Origin: Escherichia coli
GTDB lineage: Bacteria > Pseudomonadota > Gammaproteobacteria > Enterobacterales > Enterobacteriaceae
Assembly (NCBI RefSeq): GCF_003334815.1
Contig: NZ_QOWO01000005.1
Strand: one strand, 5' to 3'
Length of the DNA: 64,000 nucleotides
How positions within the stretch are numbered: the stretch's first letter is position 1; each line of letters starts with the position of its first letter. The notes beneath the pieces are model-generated. The model was given only the letters and a program-made list of their open reading frames with translations. It was not told the origin of the DNA and did no database searches. Shown here piece by piece: positions 1,812 to 62,118 of the stretch. The position numbers and the translations under genes are program-made.

Positions 1812-2189
1812 TCAGTGCTTTTCTTGCTTTTCATCAATCACCGGAATTCGCCACATATAGAAAAGCAAACAGGCGAGAATTACCAGCAACATGATGCGCA
1901 CCCATGGCATCTGGACGAACCACAGAGAAATGGCAAACGTGAGCAAAATAAGCAAAATCGCCCGCGGTTTGACGCCGCGCGGCATCGCATGATGTTTCTG
2001 CCAGAAACGTAGATAGCTGCCAAACCATGAGCGGTACAGCAACCAGGCGTGAAAGCGCGGGGAAGAACGGGCAAAGCACCAGGCCGCCAGCAGGATAAAC
2101 GGCGTCGTCGGTAATACCGGTAATACCACGCCCAGCGTACCCAGCACTACCGCCAGCCAGCCAATGATGATTAAAATGATTCGTTGCAT
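1812..2189 (-). CDS. ybaN: small inner-membrane protein, DUF454 family
   Basis: ORF 1812..2189 (-), 125 aa, hydrophobic; position between apt and priC as in E. coli. Confidence 0.85.
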
Positions 2190-2258
2190 ATTGAGTGTTG
2201 TCAGCTTACAGAGTGGCTACTTTAGCATAACAATTATCATTTTCATTGAGGTCTTATC

Positions 2259-2786
2259 GTGAAAACCGCCCTGCTGCTGGAAAAACTGGAAGGACAGCTC
2301 GCTACGCTGCGTCAGCGTTGTGCCCCGGTGTCACAGTTCGCCACGCTAAGTGCTCGTTTCGACAGGCATCTTTTTCAGACTCGTGCGACAACACTACAGG
2401 CTTGTCTCGACGAGGCGGGCGATAATCTGGCTCCGCTTCGTCATGCAGTTGAGCAGCAACAGCTGCCGCAAGTGGCCTGGCTGGCGGAACATCTGGCGGC
2501 ACAACTGGAAGCCATCGCGCGTGAAGCCTCCGCCTGGTCATTGCGCGAGTGGGACAGTGCACCACCGAAAATTGCCCGCTGGCAGCGTAAACGTATTCAG
2601 CATCAGGATTTTGAGCGGCGGCTACGTGAGATGGTTGCCGAACGCAGAGCCCGTCTGGCGCGGGTGACCGATCTCGTGGAACAGCAAACGCTGCATCGTG
2701 AAGTGGAAGCCTATGAAGCGCGCCTGGCACGCTGCCGCCATGCGCTGGAAAAAATCGAAAACAGGTTAGCGCGTTTAACCCGCTAG
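2259..2786 (+). CDS. priC: primosomal replication protein N''
   Basis: ORF 2259..2786 (+), 175 aa; start codon reads GTG in the sequence; translation matches recalled PriC. Confidence 0.9.
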
Positions 2787-2799
2787 CAATGGAGAGAAT

Positions 2800-2961
2800 A
2801 TGTCACTGGAAAATGCCCCTGACGATGTCAAACTGGCTGTCGATTTGATTGTGCTGCTGGAGGAAAATCAGATCCCTGCCAGTACCGTGCTGCGCGCGCT
2901 GGATATTGTAAAGCGTGATTATGAAAAGAAATTAACGCGCGATGATGAGGCGGAAAAGTGA
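2800..2961 (+). CDS. ybaM: small protein of unknown function (DUF2496), 53 aa
   Basis: ATG at 2800 to TGA at 2959-2961 read manually (below ORF-track length cutoff); 14 nt downstream of priC. Confidence 0.75.
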
Positions 2962-3014
2962 GAAATAAATGGGGTCGCTAAATGTCCCCTAAGGTTGCGG
3001 GCAAACGCAAAACT

Positions 3015-3113
3015 GCCTGATGCGCTACGCTTATCAGGCCTACACCGCTCCTGCAATATATTGAATTCTTGCGGTTTCGTAGGCCGGATAAGGCGGTCAC
3101 GCCGCATCCGGCA
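3015..3113. repeat. REP/BIME cluster (two REP units)
   Basis: gcctgatgcgctacgcttatcaggcctaca and gtaggccggataaggcggtcacgccgcatccggca; typical REP palindromes. Confidence 0.8.
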
Positions 3114-3142
3114 TGAACAACGCGCACTTTGTTAGCAATCTC

Positions 3143-3174
3143 GGGGCAACTAAATGTTGCCCCCTTTCGTTTTT
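3143..3174 (+). terminator. rho-independent terminator-like hairpin after priC-ybaM
   Basis: Perfect 8-bp stem ggggcaac / gttgcccc with loop taaat, followed by a T-rich tract. Confidence 0.55.
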
Positions 3175-6100
3175 ACCCTACCGCTGGCGTCGGGTCATCG
3201 CCTTTGTAGTCGCGTTTTACTTCCGTCACCTCATCGCCCTTCTCGTTGTGCAGATGCACTTCAAGCTGGTTAAAGGCAATGTTGATGTCGTTTTCACGGC
3301 ACAGCTGATCGATAGTACGGTTCAGCTCATCGACAGTACGACTACGGTCACGCAGTTCACGCACATACAGACGCAGCTCATGATCCAACGTGCTGGCACC
3401 AAATGCCGTAAAGAAGACTTCCGGCATTGGTTCGTGCATCACCCTTGGGTGCTCAGTCGCCGCCTTCAGTAACACTTTACGCACTTTTTCCAGATCGGAG
3501 CCATAGGCCACGCCGAGACGGATCACCAGACGCGTAGTAGTGTCAGTCAACGACCAGTTGATCAGACGCTCGGTAACAAACGCTTTGTTCGGGATGATCA
3601 CTTCTTTGCGATCGAAATCGGTAATCGTTGTCGCACGAATACGGATCTTACTTACCGTCCCCGAGAAGCTACCAATGGTTACCGTATCGCCAATACGCAC
3701 CGGACGTTCGAATAGAATGATCAAACCGGAGACGAAGTTACCGAAAATTTCTTGTAAACCAAAACCAAGACCTACGGATAATGCTGCGGCCAGCCACTGG
3801 AGTTTATCCCAAGAGACGCCCAGCGATCCGAACACCGTCATCGCACCAACAGCAATAATGATGTAGTTAAGGATGGTAGTAATGGCATACGACGCGCCCT
3901 GGCGCATATTCAGTCGCGAGAGCACCAGCACTTCCAGTAAACCAGGCAGGTTGCGAATCAACGCCCAGGCCACCATTGAGGCGATAATCGCAAACAACAG
4001 ACTGCCCATGGTGACGTTTTTCACCACCGCAGCGCCAGCTTCAGTGCCGTTGTAATGCCAGAGCGTGATGCTGTCGAGATAGCTGAACACGGTGATCAAA
4101 TCGGACCAAATTGCCCAGAACATGACACCGAACAGCGCAAACATCAGCAACATGGTAATACGCAGCGTCTGCTGGTTAACTTGCTCCAGTGCAATGGTGG
4201 GTTCTTCCGGCGGTTCAGCACCTTCTGCGCCCTCTTTCACCAGATTCTGCCGACGCGCCAGCGCACGACGCCAGGCGATACGCCGCGCCGCTACGCTTAA
4301 GCCACGCAGTACCGTCTGGTACAGCAGGTTCCAGATGATCACCAGATAAACGGTTTCAATCCAGCGTCCTGCCAGACGCAGCGTAGTGTAGAAGTAGCCT
4401 GTAGCAGTCAGCACCATCAGCGCAATCGGGATTATCGACAGCACGGTAATGGTGACCAGTCGCATGGTGTGCGACTCTTTATCACGCCAGCTTTCGCGGC
4501 ACATCGGCCATACCAGGAAGGCAATCAGCAGCAGGTTGAAGAAAATCATCGCTTGCCCCAGCACATCATCCATCAGATGCAGCGGGGAAAGTTCTGCCAC
4601 CACAGACCAGAAATGGATAGGCAGCAATGCGAGACTGATGCGGACAATTTGCCGACGCCAGTGGCTGGTCTGCTGTTCCGGCATGCCGAAGTGACGTACG
4701 GCAACGCCGTTTTTCTCCAGTACCTTCCAGCACAGGCCAAACACCAGCCAGAATATCGCCAGTTTTTTGCTGAACGACCATAGCAGTTCGCTGATGTTGA
4801 GCTGCATGGTCAACAGAATCAGGCCAACCGCGAGAATAATCAGGCACACCGGCAGCGCACGGATCAGGTCGATAAGGATCGCTTTTGGTGTGTTGAGCTG
4901 GCTGTCGTTACGCAGGGAACCCACAGCGGAAGCCAGTTTTTGTTGATACGCTTTCAGCCAGCCCAGACGCCAGTGGATCAGCCCGGCAATCAACAGCAGC
5001 GGCAAACCAGCGAGGAAAGCGATAAAAACGGCGGGCCAGGCTTTTTGCCAGTTCACCGTGATTTTCATCGACTTAAATTCATCTTTCAGGCTTTGCGGGA
5101 ACGCTTTGATCCAGTCCCAGTCCATTGGACGGTTACTGTTCACCCAAAAGATTTGCTGAGTCAGGATGGATTTCAGGTTTTTCGACACACTCATTAACTG
5201 CTGCTGGTTGATTTGCAGGTTAATGGCCATCATCAGCTGGTTACCCAACTGTTTGTTGAGTTGATCCAGCAATTCGCGACGCATATCAACCACTTGCAAT
5301 AACGCATCGTGAACTTCGCTGTTGACTTCGTTGGTGTGACCTTCTTCCAGTTTGTTGACGAACGCATCGCTCTGGAAGAGTGCATCACGCTGCTGGTTAA
5401 CTTCAAACTGTTCGAGACGCAAATCCGCGATGCGGTTGGTCATGTTTTCCAGTTCATCCGCCGAGGGCAGCGTTTGTTGTTGCTGGTAAAGGATACGAGA
5501 CAACAGCAGGCTGCCCTTCAGGACGGCAATCTGCTCTTTAATATTGCGTTCCGATTGCAGCGCCCGCTCCAGCCAGTTTTTGACTTTAATGTTTTGCTGC
5601 ATCAACTGATTACCGTTTTCAGTCGCGGTAATCAGACGCTGACTTAACTGCTGGTTAATTTCCAGTTCCTGCTTCACCAGCGGATTAGCCTGAATACGCG
5701 CGGCTTCATCCGGGGAGACGGCTTCCTGCGCCGTTTTTTCGGTTAAAGTCAGGCGCTTGCTGTTTACCGCTTCTTGCAACAGTTGTAACTGGTGCTCCAG
5801 ACGAGCGCTGTTCGCCGTCACGTAATCACGTTGCTTTTGCAAGGTATCCTGCAAGACGGTGTTCCCTTCCAGGCTTTTACGCTGCTGGTCAATCTCCGCA
5901 TTCAGCAACGCCTGCTGGGCCTGCATTAACACTTTCTGGCTGGGACGTAAGGCTGTCTCGCCGACATCAGTCCCATCCAGACGACTGCGAATTTGTTGCA
6001 GCTGCTGCGAAGCGTTATACATCGCATTTTGCACGCGTTCGGGCTGCGTCTGTAACGAAACCAGCTGGCTGTTATAAGACGCCAGATCGTTTTGTGCGTT

Positions 6101-6535
6101 TTGCAAATCGTCCAGCGCCTGGGCAACGCGAGTTTCCAGCTGGCGCAACGACAGCGTGCTCAGAATTTTGCGCGTTTCTTCGTCGTTATCGACATCGCTA
6201 AGTGCTGTTAACGCCGCGGTCGCCTGGCGCATTTTTTCCGGCGCTTCAGCGACTTTTTGCCGTAGCTGAACTGTCTCTTCTTTTATGCGATCGATTTTAT
6301 CGAGGGTGGCTAATGTATCTGTCAGATCCTGCTGCACCAGTTTGTCCTGAGCAGAAAGATCTTTTTGTTTATTTAGTGAGTCAAGTTGCGCCTGCAGGTC
6401 CGCTTTTGTCGGCAGATCACCATTCGATGACGCTCGCGCAAACGCCGTGTTCTGGCATAACAAGACAAAAACAAAAGCAATAAATGCTGAAAAAACAAAA
6501 TGCCGTGATCGTTTGTAATACTGGAACATAGTCAT
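3173..6535 (-). CDS. mscK: potassium-dependent mechanosensitive channel MscK (KefA/AefA)
   Basis: ORF 3173..6535 (-), 1120 aa; long coiled-coil periplasmic region, multiple TM helices, MscS-like C-terminal domain. Confidence 0.95.
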   Translation of the reverse strand: MTMFQYYKRSRHFVFSAFIAFVFVLLCQNTAFARASSNGDLPTKADLQAQLDSLNKQKDLSAQDKLVQQDLTDTLATLDKIDRIKEETVQLRQKVAEAPEKMRQATAALTALSDVDNDEETRKILSTLSLRQLETRVAQALDDLQNAQNDLASYNSQLVSLQTQPERVQNAMYNASQQLQQIRSRLDGTDVGETALRPSQKVLMQAQQALLNAEIDQQRKSLEGNTVLQDTLQKQRDYVTANSARLEHQLQLLQEAVNSKRLTLTEKTAQEAVSPDEAARIQANPLVKQELEINQQLSQRLITATENGNQLMQQNIKVKNWLERALQSERNIKEQIAVLKGSLLLSRILYQQQQTLPSADELENMTNRIADLRLEQFEVNQQRDALFQSDAFVNKLEEGHTNEVNSEVHDALLQVVDMRRELLDQLNKQLGNQLMMAINLQINQQQLMSVSKNLKSILTQQIFWVNSNRPMDWDWIKAFPQSLKDEFKSMKITVNWQKAWPAVFIAFLAGLPLLLIAGLIHWRLGWLKAYQQKLASAVGSLRNDSQLNTPKAILIDLIRALPVCLIILAVGLILLTMQLNISELLWSFSKKLAIFWLVFGLCWKVLEKNGVAVRHFGMPEQQTSHWRRQIVRISLALLPIHFWSVVAELSPLHLMDDVLGQAMIFFNLLLIAFLVWPMCRESWRDKESHTMRLVTITVLSIIPIALMVLTATGYFYTTLRLAGRWIETVYLVIIWNLLYQTVLRGLSVAARRIAWRRALARRQNLVKEGAEGAEPPEEPTIALEQVNQQTLRITMLLMFALFGVMFWAIWSDLITVFSYLDSITLWHYNGTEAGAAVVKNVTMGSLLFAIIASMVAWALIRNLPGLLEVLVLSRLNMRQGASYAITTILNYIIIAVGAMTVFGSLGVSWDKLQWLAAALSVGLGFGLQEIFGNFVSGLIILFERPVRIGDTVTIGSFSGTVSKIRIRATTITDFDRKEVIIPNKAFVTERLINWSLTDTTTRLVIRLGVAYGSDLEKVRKVLLKAATEHPRVMHEPMPEVFFTAFGASTLDHELRLYVRELRDRSRTVDELNRTIDQLCRENDINIAFNQLEVHLHNEKGDEVTEVKRDYKGDDPTPAVG

Positions 6536-6662
6536 GATGAATGAAGGTTTCTGAACCTGAAGAACGACCTGAAAAAGTCAAACCGCAAGAATATCACGAC
6601 GCAGTGAACCAGAATAGCAACGACGAAAATGTCCAGGAAAAATCCTGGAGTCAGATTCAGGG

Positions 6663-7310
6663 TTATTCGTTAGTGGCAGGATTACGAAGCGTGGGGCACA
6701 GGAGATACATCTCCAGTAAGATGGCAACGTAATCGCGGGCTTCTTTTTTAAGATCAAAAGATTGCGGGGCAAAGAGCCAGTTTTCCATCAGGCCGGAAAT
6801 ATAGCCGCGCATAATAATTGCTGCGCGACGCGTCATTAAATCCGCAGGCAACATTTTCGCTTCAATACAATGTTTTAACGTTTGTTCTATACGGTCATAA
6901 CTTTCCAGACAGAGATTACGTTGTGCCTGTTGCACAACAGCCATTTCTCCGACAAATTCGCATTTGTGGAATATAATCTCCATCAATAATCGACGCCGTT
7001 CTTCTGTCACCGTGGATTCAAGAACATGAATTAATATCTCTCTTAATACTGAGAGTGGATCGCCAGGGAATTTTGCCTGATACTCAAGCTCTAGTTCACC
7101 AATATTGGATTCTGACAGTTCCCAGATCTCACTGAACAAATCCGACTTGTCTTTAAAATGCCAGTAGATTGCACCGCGCGTAACGCCAGCTGCTTTTGCA
7201 ATCTCGCCCAGCGAGGTGGATGATACCCCCTGCTGTGAGAAAAGACGTAGAGCCACATCGAGGATGTGTTGGCGCGTTTCTTGCGCTTCTTGTTTGGTTT
7301 TTCGTGCCAT
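6663..7310 (-). CDS. acrR: TetR-family repressor of acrAB
   Basis: ORF 6663..7310 (-), 215 aa; divergent from acrA; TetR-type HTH near N-terminus. Confidence 0.95.
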
Positions 7311-7338
7311 ATGTTCGTGAATTTACAGGCGTTAGATT

Positions 7339-7362
7339 TACATACATTTGTGAATGTATGTA
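7339..7362. promoter_or_regulatory. AcrR operator palindrome in the acrR-acrA divergent promoter region
   Basis: tacatacatt-tgtg-aatgtatgta: perfect 10-bp inverted repeat arms with 4-bp spacer, read directly. Confidence 0.85.
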
Positions 7363-7451
7363 CCATAGCACGACGATAATATAAACGCAGCAATGGGTTT
7401 ATTAACTTTTGACCATTGACCAATTTGAAATCGGACACTCGAGGTTTACAT

Positions 7452-8645
7452 ATGAACAAAAACAGAGGGTTTACGCCTCTGGCGGTCGTTCTGATGCTCT
7501 CAGGCAGCTTAGCCCTAACAGGATGTGACGACAAACAGGCCCAACAAGGTGGCCAGCAGATGCCCGCCGTTGGCGTAGTAACAGTCAAAACTGAACCTCT
7601 GCAGATCACAACCGAGCTTCCGGGTCGCACCAGTGCCTACCGGATCGCAGAAGTTCGTCCTCAAGTTAGCGGGATTATCCTGAAGCGTAATTTCAAAGAA
7701 GGTAGCGACATCGAAGCAGGTGTCTCTCTCTATCAGATTGATCCTGCGACCTATCAGGCGACATACGACAGTGCGAAAGGTGATCTGGCGAAAGCCCAGG
7801 CTGCAGCCAATATCGCGCAATTGACGGTGAATCGTTATCAGAAACTGCTCGGTACTCAGTACATCAGTAAGCAAGAGTACGATCAGGCTCTGGCTGATGC
7901 GCAACAGGCGAATGCTGCGGTAACTGCGGCGAAAGCTGCCGTTGAAACTGCGCGGATCAATCTGGCTTACACCAAAGTCACCTCTCCGATTAGCGGTCGC
8001 ATTGGTAAGTCGAACGTGACGGAAGGCGCATTGGTACAGAACGGTCAGGCGACTGCGCTGGCAACCGTGCAGCAACTTGATCCGATCTACGTTGATGTGA
8101 CCCAGTCCAGCAACGACTTCCTGCGCCTGAAACAGGAACTGGCGAATGGCACGCTGAAACAAGAGAACGGCAAAGCCAAAGTGTCACTGATCACCAGTGA
8201 CGGCATTAAGTTCCCGCAGGACGGTACGCTGGAATTCTCTGACGTTACCGTTGATCAGACCACTGGGTCTATCACCCTACGCGCTATCTTCCCGAACCCG
8301 GATCACACTCTGCTGCCGGGTATGTTCGTGCGCGCACGTCTGGAAGAAGGGCTTAATCCAAACGCTATTTTAGTCCCGCAACAGGGCGTAACCCGTACGC
8401 CGCGTGGCGATGCCACCGTACTGGTAGTTGGCGCGGATGACAAAGTGGAAACCCGTCCGATCGTTGCAAGCCAGGCTATTGGCGATAAGTGGCTGGTGAC
8501 AGAAGGTCTGAAAGCAGGCGATCGCGTAGTAATAAGTGGGCTGCAGAAAGTGCGTCCTGGTGTCCAGGTAAAAGCACAAGAAGTTACCGCTGATAATAAC
8601 CAGCAAGCCGCAAGCGGTGCTCAGCCTGAACAGTCCAAGTCTTAA
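7452..8645 (+). CDS. acrA: multidrug efflux periplasmic adaptor (membrane fusion protein)
   Basis: ORF 7416..8645 (+); trimmed to MNKNRGFTPLAVVLMLSGSLALTGC (lipoprotein signal), giving 397 aa. Confidence 0.95.
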   Translation: MNKNRGFTPLAVVLMLSGSLALTGCDDKQAQQGGQQMPAVGVVTVKTEPLQITTELPGRTSAYRIAEVRPQVSGIILKRNFKEGSDIEAGVSLYQIDPATYQATYDSAKGDLAKAQAAANIAQLTVNRYQKLLGTQYISKQEYDQALADAQQANAAVTAAKAAVETARINLAYTKVTSPISGRIGKSNVTEGALVQNGQATALATVQQLDPIYVDVTQSSNDFLRLKQELANGTLKQENGKAKVSLITSDGIKFPQDGTLEFSDVTVDQTTGSITLRAIFPNPDHTLLPGMFVRARLEEGLNPNAILVPQQGVTRTPRGDATVLVVGADDKVETRPIVASQAIGDKWLVTEGLKAGDRVVISGLQKVRPGVQVKAQEVTADNNQQAASGAQPEQSKS

Positions 8646-8664
8646 CTTAAACAGGAGCCGTTAA

Positions 8665-11817
<3,153 letters not shown>

Positions 11818-11834
11818 TACAACGTGTAATCACT

Positions 11835-11860
11835 AAGGCCGCGTAAGCGGCCTTTTTTAT
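11835..11860 (+). terminator. rho-independent terminator after acrB
   Basis: Stem aaggccgc / gcggcctt with loop gtaa, followed by a T6 run. Confidence 0.75.
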
Positions 11861-12362
11861 GCATAACCTACGAACATTAAGGAGTAATTGAACCACCAAC
11901 TCAGGATCTCATACGAAAACCAGTATTAACCACGGATAAAATTCATAAAAAATACTGATTGTTAGTTAATTTATATTAAGTAGCGCTAATAGATTTAATA
12001 ATCCATAATCATTTAGAGGCTATTCTTAATTATTTGCGGTAATTCTTTATTCATTCCTCGGTTATTACGTCATATTCAGAGCAATCCTGGTATTAGTGTC
12101 ACCAATTTCATCTGGCGATAATCCTGAAATGTTATGAATAGTTCGAGCAAACTGCTTTTACCTGCTGCGGGTTAGTGCTAGTATGAAAAAGTGAGTCCTG
12201 TCCCGCTTCCTTCCTAATTGTAATTTTTCGTAATAATGCGATGAAAACCTGCAAAGAGTGGCTTATAGTTAAGCTAACAAACGAGAGGGCAAGTCCAGGT
12301 CAGTAAGTTTTTTCCATCCCGAAAGGTGTCCGTTAGTTCAACCGCTAAGAAGGGGACGCGTT

Positions 12363-12737
12363 ATGGATGAATACTCACCCAAAAGACATGATATCGCACA
12401 GCTTAAGTTTCTCTGTGAAACCCTGTATCATGACTGCCTTGCAAACCTTGAAGAAAGCAATCATGGCTGGGTAAACGACCCAACCTCGGCGATCAACCTC
12501 CAGTTGAATGAACTGATTGAGCATATTGCGACCTTCGCACTTAATTACAAAATTAAGTATAATGAAGACAATAAGCTCATTGAGCAGATCGACGAATATC
12601 TGGATGACACCTTTATGTTGTTCAGTAGTTATGGTATTAATATGCAGGATCTTCAGAAATGGCGGAAGTCAGGTAATCGACTATTCCGTTGTTTTGTCAA
12701 TGCGACGAAAGAGAATCCTGCGAGTTTATCTTGTTAG
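12363..12737 (+). CDS. tomB: Hha toxicity modulator TomB (YbaJ)
   Basis: ORF 12363..12737 (+), 124 aa; immediately upstream of hha. Confidence 0.9.
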
Positions 12738-12762
12738 AATTATTACAACCATAGGTAGAAGT

Positions 12763-12981
12763 ATGTCCGAAAAACCTTTAACGAAAACCGATTATTTAAT
12801 GCGTTTACGTCGTTGCCAGACAATTGACACGCTGGAGCGTGTTATCGAGAAAAATAAATACGAATTATCAGATAATGAACTGGCGGTATTTTACTCAGCC
12901 GCAGATCACCGCCTCGCCGAATTGACCATGAATAAACTGTACGACAAGATCCCTTCCTCAGTATGGAAATTTATTCGCTAA
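12763..12981 (+). CDS. hha: haemolysin expression modulator Hha (H-NS partner)
   Basis: Within ORF 12517..12981; trimmed to [72 protein letters not shown], 72 aa. Confidence 0.93.
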
Positions 12982-13152
12982 TAAATAATTCGCTTTCGGA
13001 GCTATAACCGGCTGTTTATTAAGAATTTTATACTTTTTCGCCATGAAGACATACCCTATGTGATCTTTATCACACAGATGTAATGGGAACGTTCTCTTCA
13101 CTGACTTTTCGTCTTACTGTGTTGCCGCATTTTCAGCAACCGGAGGTCAGTA

Positions 13153-16509: not shown

Positions 16510-16623
16510 GGGTGGGGGCCCTGCCAGCTACATCCCGGCACACGCGTCATCTGCCTTGGCTGCTTCCTTCCGGACCTGACCTGGTAAACAGAGTAGCGTT
16601 GCGGGAGAACCAACAGAGCCCCC
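16510..16623 (-). ncRNA. ffs: 4.5S RNA (signal recognition particle RNA)
   Basis: Reverse complement reads GGGGGCTCTGTTGGTTCTCCCGCAACGCTACTCTGTTTACCAGGTCAGGTCCGGAAGGAAGCAGCCAAGGCAGATGACGCGTGTGCCGGGATGTAGCTGGCAGGGCCCCCACCC, 114 nt, matching recalled ffs including the conserved domain IV region. Confidence 0.95.
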
Positions 16624-31828: not shown

Positions 31829-34183
31829 CTATTTTGCAGTCACAACCTGCATACCAGACGGTTCATTTTGCAGCGCCAGAGTCAGAACTTCCTCAATGCG
31901 CTTCACAGGATGAATGTCCAGATCGGCAATTACGTTGTCAGGAATCTCTTCCAGATCGCGTTTATTTTCGAACGGAATTAGCACTGTTTTAATCCCGCCG
32001 CGATGCGCTGCCAGGAGTTTTTCTTTCAAACCACCGATCGGCAGTACCTGACCACGCAGAGTGATCTCACCGGTCATTGCCACATCGGCACGAACCGGGT
32101 TACCGGTCAGGCAAGAAACCAGCGCGGTGCACATAGCAATACCGGCACTCGGACCATCTTTCGGCGTCGCACCTTCCGGTACGTGGACGTGGATGTCACG
32201 TTTTTCGTAAAAATCAGGGTTGATCCCCAGTTTTTCCGCACGCGCACGAACCACCGTTAACGCCGCCTGAATGGACTCCTGCATCACTTCGCCGAGCGAA
32301 CCGGTATAGGTCAGTTTGCCTTTACCCGGAACACATGCGGTTTCAATGGTCAGCAAGTCACCGCCCACTTCCGTCCACGCCAGACCGGTTACCTGACCGA
32401 CACGGTTTTCGTTATCCGCGCGACCATAGTCGAAACGCTGAACACCGAGATAGTCATGCAGGTTATCGCCGTTAATTTCGATATGTTTTAATGACTTATC
32501 GAGCAGTAACTGCTTAACCGCTTTGCGACACAGTTTGGAGATTTCACGCTCCAGACCACGCACGCCCGCCTCACGGGTGTAGTAACGAATAATGCCGATA
32601 ATGGCGCTATCGTCGACGGTCAGCTCACCTTTTTTCAGTGCATTACGTTCAATCTGCTTCGGCAGCAGGTGACGTTTGGCGATGTTCAGTTTTTCATCTT
32701 CGGTATAACCGGAGAGGCGAATCACTTCCATACGATCCAGCAGCGGTGCCGGAATGTTCATGGAGTTCGACGTCGCGACAAACATCACGTCGCTGAGATC
32801 GTAATCCACTTCCAGGTAGTGGTCGCTGAACGCTACGTTCTGCTCTGGATCCAGCACTTCAAGCAGTGCAGAGGCCGGATCGCCACGCATGTCAGAAGAC
32901 ATTTTGTCGATCTCATCGAGCAGGAACAGCGGGTTTTTCACGCCCACTTTCGCCATTTTCTGGATCAGTTTACCCGGCATAGAACCGATGTAAGTACGGC
33001 GGTGACCACGGATTTCCGCTTCATCACGCACGCCGCCCAGCGCCATACGGACATATTTACGCCCGGTGGCTTTGGCAATGGACTGACCAAGAGAGGTTTT
33101 ACCTACCCCCGGCGGCCCTACCAGGCAGAGGATCGGTCCCTTGATTTTGTTGACACGGCTTTGAACCGCAAGATACTCAAGGATTCGATCTTTCACGCGC
33201 TCCAGACCATAATGGTCGGTATCAAGGATTTCCTGCGCCTGACGCAGGTCTTTTTTGACCTTGCTACGCGCATTCCACGGCACCTGTACCATCCAGTCGA
33301 TATAACCACGCACTACGGTCGCTTCTGCCGACATCGGAGACATCATTTTCAGCTTCTGCAACTCTGCTTCCGCTTTCTCTTTTGCCTCTTTCGGCATCTT
33401 CGCCGCGTCGATTTTGCGCTTCAGGGCTTCGTTTTCGTCCGGCGCGTCGTCCATTTCACCGAGTTCTTTCTGAATAGCTTTCATTTGCTCGTTCAGATAG
33501 TACTCACGCTGGGATTTCTCCATCTGCTTTTTAACGCGGTTGCGAATGCGTTTCTCAACCTGCAGCAGATCGATTTCCGATTCCATCATTGCCATCAGAT
33601 ATTCCAGACGTTCGTTAACGTCGGACATCTCCAGAACAGACTGTTTGTCAGCCAGTTTCAGCGGCATATGTGCAGCAATGGTATCCGCCAGACGCGCCGG
33701 ATCGTCGATGCTATTCAGCGACGTCAGCACTTCTGGTGGGATTTTTTTGTTCAGCTTGATGTAGCCTTCGAACTGGCTGATTGCAGTACGCACCAGCACT
33801 TCCTGTTCCCGCTCATCAATGGTCGGCGACTCCAGATACTCCGCCTTCGCAGAAAAGTGTTCGCCATTGTCAGAGAGCGCAGAAATACGCGCGCGCTGTA
33901 ACCCCTCGACCAGCACTTTGACGGTGCCGTCAGGCAGTTTCAGCATCTGCAATATAGAGGCCACGGTCCCGACGGTGAAAAGATCGTTTACACCCGGCTC
34001 ATCCGTTGAAGCTTCTTTCTGCGCGACCAGCATAATTTTTTTATCATGGTCCATCGCCGCTTCCAGACAACGGATAGATTTTTCCCGCCCGACAAATAAG
34101 GGGATGACCATGTGCGGATAAACCACCACATCGCGCAGCGGCAATACGGGGATTTCAATGCGTTCAGAACGCTCAGGATTCAT
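31829..34183 (-). CDS. lon: ATP-dependent Lon protease
   Basis: ORF 31829..34228 (-); trimmed to [33 protein letters not shown]..., 784 aa; Walker [10 protein letters not shown], catalytic Ser region PKDGPSAG. Confidence 0.96.
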
Positions 34184-34266
34184 AGAGCTCTCTCTTAGTT
34201 TAATTTCCGCCAGGTAATCAGATGACACGACTGTGCTTCACGCCATCTATTAACATGTACGTCAGT

Positions 34267-34293
34267 ATATGGGGATGTTTCCCCCACATTCAA
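34267..34293 (-). promoter_or_regulatory. lon heat-shock (sigma32-type) promoter containing the GGGG-N7-CCCC motif
   Basis: Minus strand reads TTGAAT-gtgggggaaacat-CCCCATAT, resembling sigma32 -35 and -10 elements; about 85-110 bp upstream of the lon ATG. Confidence 0.7.
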
Positions 34294-34370
34294 CGCCGAG
34301 AATAGAGGAAAAATTAAAGGGGAGATAAAATCCCCCCTTTTTGGTTAACTAATTGTATGGGAATGGTTAA

Positions 34371-39525: not shown

Positions 39526-41001
39526 ATGTCCAGTCAATATTTACGTATTTTTCAACAGCCGCGTTCAGCCATATTGCTGATCCTGGGTTTTGCTTCCGGG
39601 CTACCGCTCGCCCTGACATCCGGTACCTTACAGGCCTGGATGACGGTCGAGAATATTGATCTCAAAACCATTGGTTTCTTCTCTCTGGTAGGCCAGGCTT
39701 ACGTTTTTAAATTCCTCTGGTCACCGCTGATGGACCGCTACACGCCTCCATTTTTTGGGCGGCGACGCGGTTGGCTGCTCGCCACGCAAATCCTGTTATT
39801 AGTCGCCATTGCGGCGATGGGTTTTCTCGAACCAGGCACCCAACTCCGCTGGATGGCGGCGCTGGCGGTGGTGATCGCTTTTTGCTCTGCCTCCCAGGAT
39901 ATTGTCTTCGATGCGTGGAAAACCGATGTGCTCCCGGCAGAAGAACGTGGTGCGGGCGCGGCAATCAGCGTTCTGGGTTACCGTTTAGGGATGCTGGTTT
40001 CCGGCGGCCTAGCCCTGTGGCTGGCAGATAAATGGCTGGGCTGGCAGGGCATGTACTGGTTGATGGCGGCGCTGTTGATCCCCTGTATTATCGCGACGTT
40101 GCTTGCACCAGAACCGACCGACACCATTCCTGTGCCAAAAACGCTGGAACAAGCGGTTGTTGCACCTCTGCGAGATTTCTTTGGTCGCAATAATGCCTGG
40201 CTTATTTTGCTTCTTATCGTGCTGTATAAGCTGGGCGACGCATTCGCCATGAGCCTGACAACCACGTTTTTGATTCGCGGCGTCGGGTTTGATGCGGGTG
40301 AAGTAGGCGTGGTTAACAAAACGCTTGGCTTACTAGCGACCATTGTTGGCGCATTGTACGGTGGGATTTTGATGCAGCGCCTGTCACTGTTCCGGGCACT
40401 GCTGATTTTCGGCATTTTACAAGGTGCGTCTAACGCCGGTTACTGGCTGCTGTCGATTACTGATAAGCATCTCTACAGCATGGGCGCAGCCGTCTTTTTC
40501 GAAAACCTCTGTGGCGGGATGGGCACATCAGCCTTTGTCGCGCTGTTAATGACGCTATGTAATAAGTCATTTTCCGCTACTCAATTTGCCCTGCTCTCAG
40601 CGCTTTCTGCTGTAGGGCGAGTTTATGTCGGCCCCGTGGCGGGTTGGTTTGTTGAAGCACACGGCTGGTCGACATTCTATCTATTCTCCGTCGCCGCTGC
40701 CGTACCAGGGCTTATTTTGCTGCTGGTTTGCCGCCAGACGCTTGAATATACACGAGTAAATGACAACTTTATCTCCCGTACCGCATATCCGGCAGGTTAT
40801 GCCTTTGCCATGTGGACACTGGCGGCGGGCGTCAGCCTGTTGGCCGTGTGGTTACTGCTATTGACGATGGACGCGCTGGATTTGACGCACTTCTCTTTCC
40901 TGCCTGCTCTGCTGGAAGTCGGGGTTTTAGTCGCCCTTTCTGGCGTCGTGCTTGGTGGTTTGCTGGATTATCTGGCGCTACGAAAAACGCATCTGACGTA
41001 A
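39526..41001 (+). CDS. ampG: muropeptide (anhydromuropeptide) permease, MFS
   Basis: ORF 39526..41001 (+), 491 aa; polytopic membrane protein. Confidence 0.95.
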   Translation: MSSQYLRIFQQPRSAILLILGFASGLPLALTSGTLQAWMTVENIDLKTIGFFSLVGQAYVFKFLWSPLMDRYTPPFFGRRRGWLLATQILLLVAIAAMGFLEPGTQLRWMAALAVVIAFCSASQDIVFDAWKTDVLPAEERGAGAAISVLGYRLGMLVSGGLALWLADKWLGWQGMYWLMAALLIPCIIATLLAPEPTDTIPVPKTLEQAVVAPLRDFFGRNNAWLILLLIVLYKLGDAFAMSLTTTFLIRGVGFDAGEVGVVNKTLGLLATIVGALYGGILMQRLSLFRALLIFGILQGASNAGYWLLSITDKHLYSMGAAVFFENLCGGMGTSAFVALLMTLCNKSFSATQFALLSALSAVGRVYVGPVAGWFVEAHGWSTFYLFSVAAAVPGLILLLVCRQTLEYTRVNDNFISRTAYPAGYAFAMWTLAAGVSLLAVWLLLLTMDALDLTHFSFLPALLEVGVLVALSGVVLGGLLDYLALRKTHLT

Positions 41002-61951: not shown

Positions 61952-61980
61952 TGCCGGGATTTATTCCCGGCATTTCTGAT
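61952..61980 (+). terminator. rho-independent terminator-like hairpin after tsx
   Basis: Stem tgccggga / tcccggca with loop tttat, followed by a T-rich tract. Confidence 0.6.
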
Positions 61981-62005
61981 TGTTAACAACGTGTGCTTTG
62001 TTCAT

Positions 62006-62104
62006 GCCGGATGCGGCGTAAACGCTTTGTCCGGCCAACAAAAGCACGTAAATTCAATATATTGCTGAAATAACGTAGGCCTGATAAGCGTAGCGCATCA
62101 GGCA
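62006..62104. repeat. REP/BIME cluster (two REP units)
   Basis: gccggatgcggcgtaaacgctttgtccggcc and gtaggcctgataagcgtagcgcatcaggca. Confidence 0.75.
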
Positions 62105-62118
62105 ATTTTACGTTTTAA

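Follow-up and report, generated by a model that had tools for sequence, protein, structure and literature searches.

Reference Wild-Type State of the acrR-acrAB Control Region in a 64-kb Stretch of Escherichia coli DNA

In Escherichia coli, the gene for the repressor AcrR and the acrAB operon, which encodes the main multidrug efflux pump of the species, are divergently oriented, and a locus of this kind can be found either in a repressible, wild-type form or as a derepressed variant with a disrupted acrR or operator. This raises the question of which form is present in the 64,000-nucleotide stretch of E. coli DNA analysed here, referred to as the window. The original prediction, made from the letters of the DNA, held that both acrR and a 24-bp AcrR operator are intact and that the locus is wild type. 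It is shown below that a wild-type E. coli acrR-acrAB regulatory region is the best explanation of the observations, with a probability of about 0.96. The present analysis established how the region is built, its sequence identity and its conservation, while for the binding of AcrR and its release by ligands, for repression and for the binding of MarA we rely on the literature on the identical sequence.

The window was aligned to E. coli K-12 MG1655 (NC_000913.3, 493070..429071, reverse complement), resulting in one ungapped alignment of 64,000 bases with 20 substitutions. No substitution is located between positions 6435 and 17382, and the nucleotide identity extends from codon 34 of mscK to ybaY; within 2071-13071, the only two differences are found at 2433 in priC and at 6434 in mscK. 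The genes acrR (nucleotide-identical to b0464), acrA, acrB, tomB, hha and several further downstream are identical to the reference, and the same holds for the intergenic region, so that the base-by-base comparison of acrR-acrAB (b0464-b0462), including operator and promoter region, gave zero differences. On the minus strand, the ATG of acrR begins with position 7310, and acrA starts on the plus strand with its ATG at 7452, so the interval that had been proposed as the control region is exactly the gap between the two genes. The acrA and acrB genes are adjacent and co-oriented, with a gap of 22 bp. The features of the locus are collected in Table 1.

Table 1. Features of the acrR-acrAB locus, in positions of the window.
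Feature	Position	Strand	Description
acrR	6663..7310	-	TetR-family local repressor AcrR, 215 aa; from ORF and translation
marbox	7291..7310	-	MarA/SoxS/Rob site; coincides with nt 1-20 of the acrR coding sequence
acrR-acrA intergenic region	7311..7451		Divergent, 141 bp; MG1655 485620-485760
Predicted sigma-70 acrAB promoter	7337..7366	+	-35 TTTACA 7337-7342, 18-nt spacer, -10 TACCAT 7361-7366; from consensus scan
AcrR (and EnvR/AcrS) operator	7339..7362		24 bp; arms 7339-7348 and 7353-7362, spacer TGTG 7349-7352
Invariant block	7384..7400	+	AACGCAGCAATGGGTTT, 17 nt; acrA leader / acrR upstream region
'Secondary' CsrA-binding motif	7431..7436	+	TCGGAC in the acrA mRNA leader; read from the sequence
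acrA	7452..8645	+	Periplasmic adaptor lipoprotein, 397 aa; MG1655 b0463
acrB	8668..11817	+	RND permease, 1049 aa; MG1655 b0462

The 20 SNPs across 64 kb, 11 of which are located in ampG, indicate that the source of the window is near to K-12 but distinct from it. The closest 25-kb matches in the E. coli collection were wild phylogroup-A-like isolates and not K-12 derivatives, so that the source is closely related to K-12 without being K-12. The 11 substitutions in ampG, more than half of the total, are all synonymous and are confined to 481 bp (39657-40137); this cluster looks like a short recombination tract. The sole non-synonymous differences from MG1655 in the window are the three exchanges R44C in cof (25530), S104P in ybaY (17383) and A59P in priC (2433). 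In addition, a pair of intergenic repeats of about 140 bp with 83% identity, which resemble REP/BIME-type elements, was observed downstream of mscK (3003-3140) and between yajD and tsx (61978-62115).

The acrR gene is an unbroken open reading frame of 215 codons. Its product was identified as AcrR by the NCBIfam AcrR equivalog NF007949 (419.3 bits, cut-off 271, residues 1-214 of 215) and by a full-length match to the crystallised E. coli AcrR (PDB 2QOP/3BCG, E = 1.6e-141), and it scores under the cut-offs of the MtrR and EnvR models. AcrA and AcrB were assigned by their respective NCBIfam equivalogs with 885 bits (cut-off 765) and 2422 bits (cut-off 2150). TtgR from P. putida, MtrR from Neisseria, NalD and SmeT share the fold and the N-terminal helix-turn-helix of AcrR, and like AcrR they are divergent local repressors of an operon for an adaptor and an RND permease. 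The similarity to AcrR of the window is E = 2e-44 for TtgR and E = 2e-32 for MtrR. However, these repressors are distinct proteins with other ligand pockets and their own operators.

The known lesions of acrR were also checked. A frameshift, a stop codon, an insertion or IS element and a substitution of R45 were sought in acrR, and none was seen; Arg45 is present. Substitutions of residue 45 in acrR have been described in the literature for resistant isolates, and strain HUE1 carries an acrR allele disrupted by an IS3-IS629 insertion (PMC3662882). Such alleles occur at the same locus, but the window carries none of their lesions. Among complete E. coli genomes, a 60-bp core of the region (7321-7380) was present in 5424 of 5426 and exact in 5277 of these 5424 (about 97%), where exact refers to an aligned stretch with at least 99% identity, which for a match over the full 60 bp leaves room for no difference. 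A 901-bp query comprising acrR and the intergenic region was contiguous in 5383 of the 5424 genomes. Three exceptions show how a derepressed variant would be expected to look: IS1 is located within acrR in NZ_AP022105.1, acrR is truncated to 153 nt in NZ_CP173466.1 from a urine isolate, and in NZ_CP148461.1 from a chicken E. coli isolate a gene annotated as an IS481-family transposase lies between acrR and the operator. In NZ_CP148461.1, the insertion has come to lie between the marbox and the acrAB promoter, and its annotated open reading frame extends into the operator region. The view of the locus as wild type and repressible, rather than a derepressed variant, is thus supported, with the locus itself as its scope.

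Between the two divergent transcription units, the inverted repeat TACATACATT-TGTG-AATGTATGTA was identified, corresponding to the full 24-mer TACATACATTTGTGAATGTATGTA. It is located 29 bp from the ATG of acrR and 90 bp from the ATG of acrA. The palindrome had been predicted at this position, which was confirmed by direct reading and by a repeat search, with two arms of 10 nt each that are 100% complementary and 4 nt apart. With a tolerance of up to three mismatches, the window contains the 24-mer just once, and 100 dinucleotide-preserving shuffles did not produce it at all, which argues against a palindrome formed by chance. While no further AcrR site with three mismatches or fewer was found in the 64 kb, the published secondary AcrR sites differ by 9-11 mismatches and are by sequence alone indistinguishable from chance.

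This 24-mer has been published as the binding site of AcrR (PMC9769551; PMC10597343). Purified AcrR was shown to shift a 179-bp acrAB promoter fragment, the primers of which match 7280-7458 of the window, and the shift was abolished by ethidium, putrescine and cadaverine; further, the deletion of acrR in E. coli led to a strong derepression of an acrAB-lacZ fusion (PMC9769551). The site has been described as two 10-bp repeats 4 bp apart, to which AcrR binds as a dimer of dimers; the two dimers sit on opposite faces of the DNA, and each makes contact with both repeats (PMC10597343).

The same palindrome might serve in vivo mainly as the operator of the paralogous EnvR/AcrS. EnvR binds the acrAB promoter, reportedly tighter than AcrR, and for Salmonella it was shown that EnvR/AcrS recognises the corresponding palindrome as well and that the binding of EnvR is lost once this palindrome is mutated (PMC9780535). 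However, the expression of envR is negligible in laboratory conditions (PMC9780535), and both the strong derepression of the acrAB promoter in the E. coli delta-acrR strain and the shift obtained with purified AcrR (PMC9769551) point to AcrR. A predominant role of EnvR is therefore considered very unlikely, and the EnvR and AcrR readings of the palindrome are mutually compatible.

The spread of the AcrR operator was investigated in 100,044 species with one genome each, using fixed arms and a free spacer, and at least 120 loci were obtained. Since exact arms were required, the scan shows the specificity and spread of the motif, and not how often orthologous loci lack the arms. About 114 among the 120 loci listed have an AcrR homologue with 35-99% identity next to the palindrome and an AcrA homologue in divergent orientation. 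The distances hardly vary within Enterobacterales, with the operator 28-30 bp from the ATG of acrR and 82-98 bp (mostly 88-93) from the ATG of acrA. The same 10-4-10 palindrome was also observed without a detectable AcrR or AcrA homologue in the flank, namely in Thomasclavelia, Pseudidiomarina, Parendozoicomonas and Clostridium neonatale. These palindromes may have arisen by chance in AT-rich DNA, or unrelated regulators may bind there.

A repeat of this kind could fold if transcribed within the acrR leader, so that an RNA hairpin or a terminator has to be considered in place of a protein site. The repeat is AT-rich and is not followed by a T-run, and a terminator scan made no call there. Across the genera, the arms are invariant and the spacer is free, with TGTG, CATA, CACA, CGCG and others being present, and no compensatory changes of the arms were seen in the scan, which required exact arms. 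Invariant arms with a free spacer are the pattern of a site recognised by a protein, and, with the result of the shuffles, a chance palindrome, hairpin or terminator is regarded as extremely improbable.

Identical arms were found beside AcrR homologues over a considerable range of sequence divergence, including Aeromonas and several Betaproteobacteria, where the AcrR homologue is only 35-43% identical overall. In five loci from Aeromonas and five from Comamonadaceae and relatives, 20 of 20 arm positions agree with E. coli, with 35-40% overall identity of the AcrR homologue. For the 19 most distant AcrR homologues among the loci listed, identity amounts to 66% in residues 1-60, which form the DNA-binding domain, but only 26% in the ligand domain, and the recognition helix is nearly invariant. 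A conserved DNA-binding domain combined with a divergent ligand domain matches the invariant arms of the operator.

For the rightward acrAB promoter, a consensus scan revealed three sites compared to 0.4 expected. The hexamers given in Table 1 are consensus predictions with 9 of 12 matches, and from them we infer a transcription start near 7373. The operator spans the spacer of this predicted promoter and touches both hexamers, reaching from inside the -35 to the first bases of the -10. For acrR, promoter candidates were obtained by the scan on the minus strand at 7405-7376, with a -35 that falls in a poorly conserved stretch, and an alternative extended -10 TGCTATGGT was noted by eye on the minus strand at 7370-7362; both are tentative candidates.

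When the 64 kb were searched with the marbox consensus AYNGCACNNWNNRYYAAAYN (AYnGCACnnWnnRYYAAAYn), a single exact match was obtained, ATGGCACGAAAAACCAAAC at 7292-7310 on the minus strand, with 0.03 matches expected by chance. The oligonucleotide 'acrAB_short_prom' listed for MarA EMSAs (PMC11633057 Table S1) has the identical sequence as its core. Given a start near 7373, the centre of the marbox would be at about -72.5, in agreement with a class I site for RamA at about -71.5 upstream of K. pneumoniae acrA (PMC8811837). The marbox is located outside the interval originally named as the control region, in the coding sequence of acrR, so that this delimitation holds for the palindrome and leaves out the activator site.

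The region has been described in similar form for Salmonella enterica, where acrR-acrAB also has an intergenic region of 141 bp, AcrR and EnvR bind to a 24-bp palindrome, and CsrA binds to the acrA leader. The 'primary' CsrA motif TAAGGAC, which was mutated in that work, and the 'secondary' motif TCGGAC were defined in Salmonella (PMC5727465). While the Salmonella leader contains both, the leader in the window contains TCGGAC only, and TAAGGAC was not found in 7373-7451. A tandem repeat of the 7-bp unit, TTGACCA TTGACCA, is present at 7409-7422, whereas other genera have a single CATTGATCAA.

A structured acrA leader was not supported, since the fold of 7373-7470 was no better than that of shuffles (z = -0.49), and a small hairpin with a GCAA loop at 7381-7402 was rejected as an RNA element, as it lacked covariation. 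With Rfam at gathering thresholds, only sraA and 4.5S RNA were identified in the whole window and none near acrR or acrA. The sraA sRNA is located at 34255-34350 on the plus strand in the clpX/lon intergenic region, and the 4.5S SRP RNA (ffs) at 16519-16615 on the minus strand.

Based on these features and the published data, the following mode of action is proposed. AcrR produced from the leftward gene would bind to the inverted repeat, probably as the two dimers proposed in the literature, and would keep RNA polymerase off the rightward acrAB promoter, because the repeat starts within the predicted -35 and ends on the first bases of the predicted -10; the mechanism would accordingly be one of steric exclusion, which we infer from this overlap. 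AcrR would also limit its own synthesis, because the repeat lies between acrR and whichever promoter drives it. Ligands bound in the C-terminal pocket are expected to release AcrR from the DNA, as was shown for ethidium, putrescine and cadaverine. Independently, MarA, SoxS or Rob at the marbox, around -72 and within the first codons of acrR, would activate acrAB as class I activators, and CsrA would act post-transcriptionally on the acrA leader. For Salmonella it was reported that the deletion of acrR barely alters MICs (PMC9780535), which indicates that AcrR is a modulator and not a master switch.

A conservation profile was derived from an alignment of 90 Enterobacterales loci with the window. 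At least 95% conservation was observed for the marbox, for the -10 region CCATAGCA and, between 7414 and the ATG, for the greater part of the acrA leader, and the TCGGAC columns form a block with at least 90% conservation. Poorly conserved are the acrR leader (7311-7338) and the stretch 7400-7412.

One further element emerged from this comparison. The block AACGCAGCAATGGGTTT, which begins 21 nt past the operator in the window, is conserved as a sequence to the degree of the operator and the marbox. Among the 120 loci listed, 88 carry the block with up to three mismatches at a fixed distance of 20-21 nt past the operator; these 88 are all from Enterobacterales, and the block was not found outside this order among the loci listed. 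Covariation was sought in the alignment of the block and none was seen, and the block had no match in the searchable literature and belongs to no Rfam family. It is the only item of the region which is not linked to a described site. A role as an undescribed cis element, for example as a site through which an additional protein regulates acrAB or acrR, or as a sequence-specific mRNA determinant, is conceivable on the basis of its conservation, though doubtful.

The wild-type state of the locus says nothing about the level of efflux in the strain. According to reviews, the level of AcrAB is set mainly by MarA, SoxS and Rob and by the repressors encoded by marR and soxR, which are located outside the window, and high-level AcrAB usually results from mutations in marR, soxR or related genes, or from a loss of the Lon-mediated degradation of MarA. 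A strain with this wild-type locus might therefore over-express AcrAB by mutations in marR, soxR, rob or envR, all outside the 64 kb, or by a duplication of the acrAB region elsewhere, and a chief role of MarA, SoxS and Rob in the induction of acrAB, with AcrR only as a modulator, would be in accordance with such a route. However, the marbox as well as lon (31829-34183, minus strand) with the region upstream of lon show no difference from MG1655, and the window contains no IS element or duplication, because the alignment is a single ungapped match over all 64,000 bases. Over-expression by this route is considered improbable, and it concerns the strain and not the feature, for which the wild-type assignment is retained.

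The acrR-acrAB control region in the window is thus the textbook region, already known, in the reference wild-type state. For the family of AcrR repressors, the comparison provides a tidy illustration, the point of which is not new, of a DNA-reading head that remains constant together with its operator, while the ligand domain diverges. For the strain, the local AcrAB circuit is in the reference state in all its parts, from the repressor, the operator and the marbox to the promoter, the pump genes and lon nearby. This matters little beyond annotation; if the strain had an efflux-based resistance, its cause would have to be sought outside this circuit.
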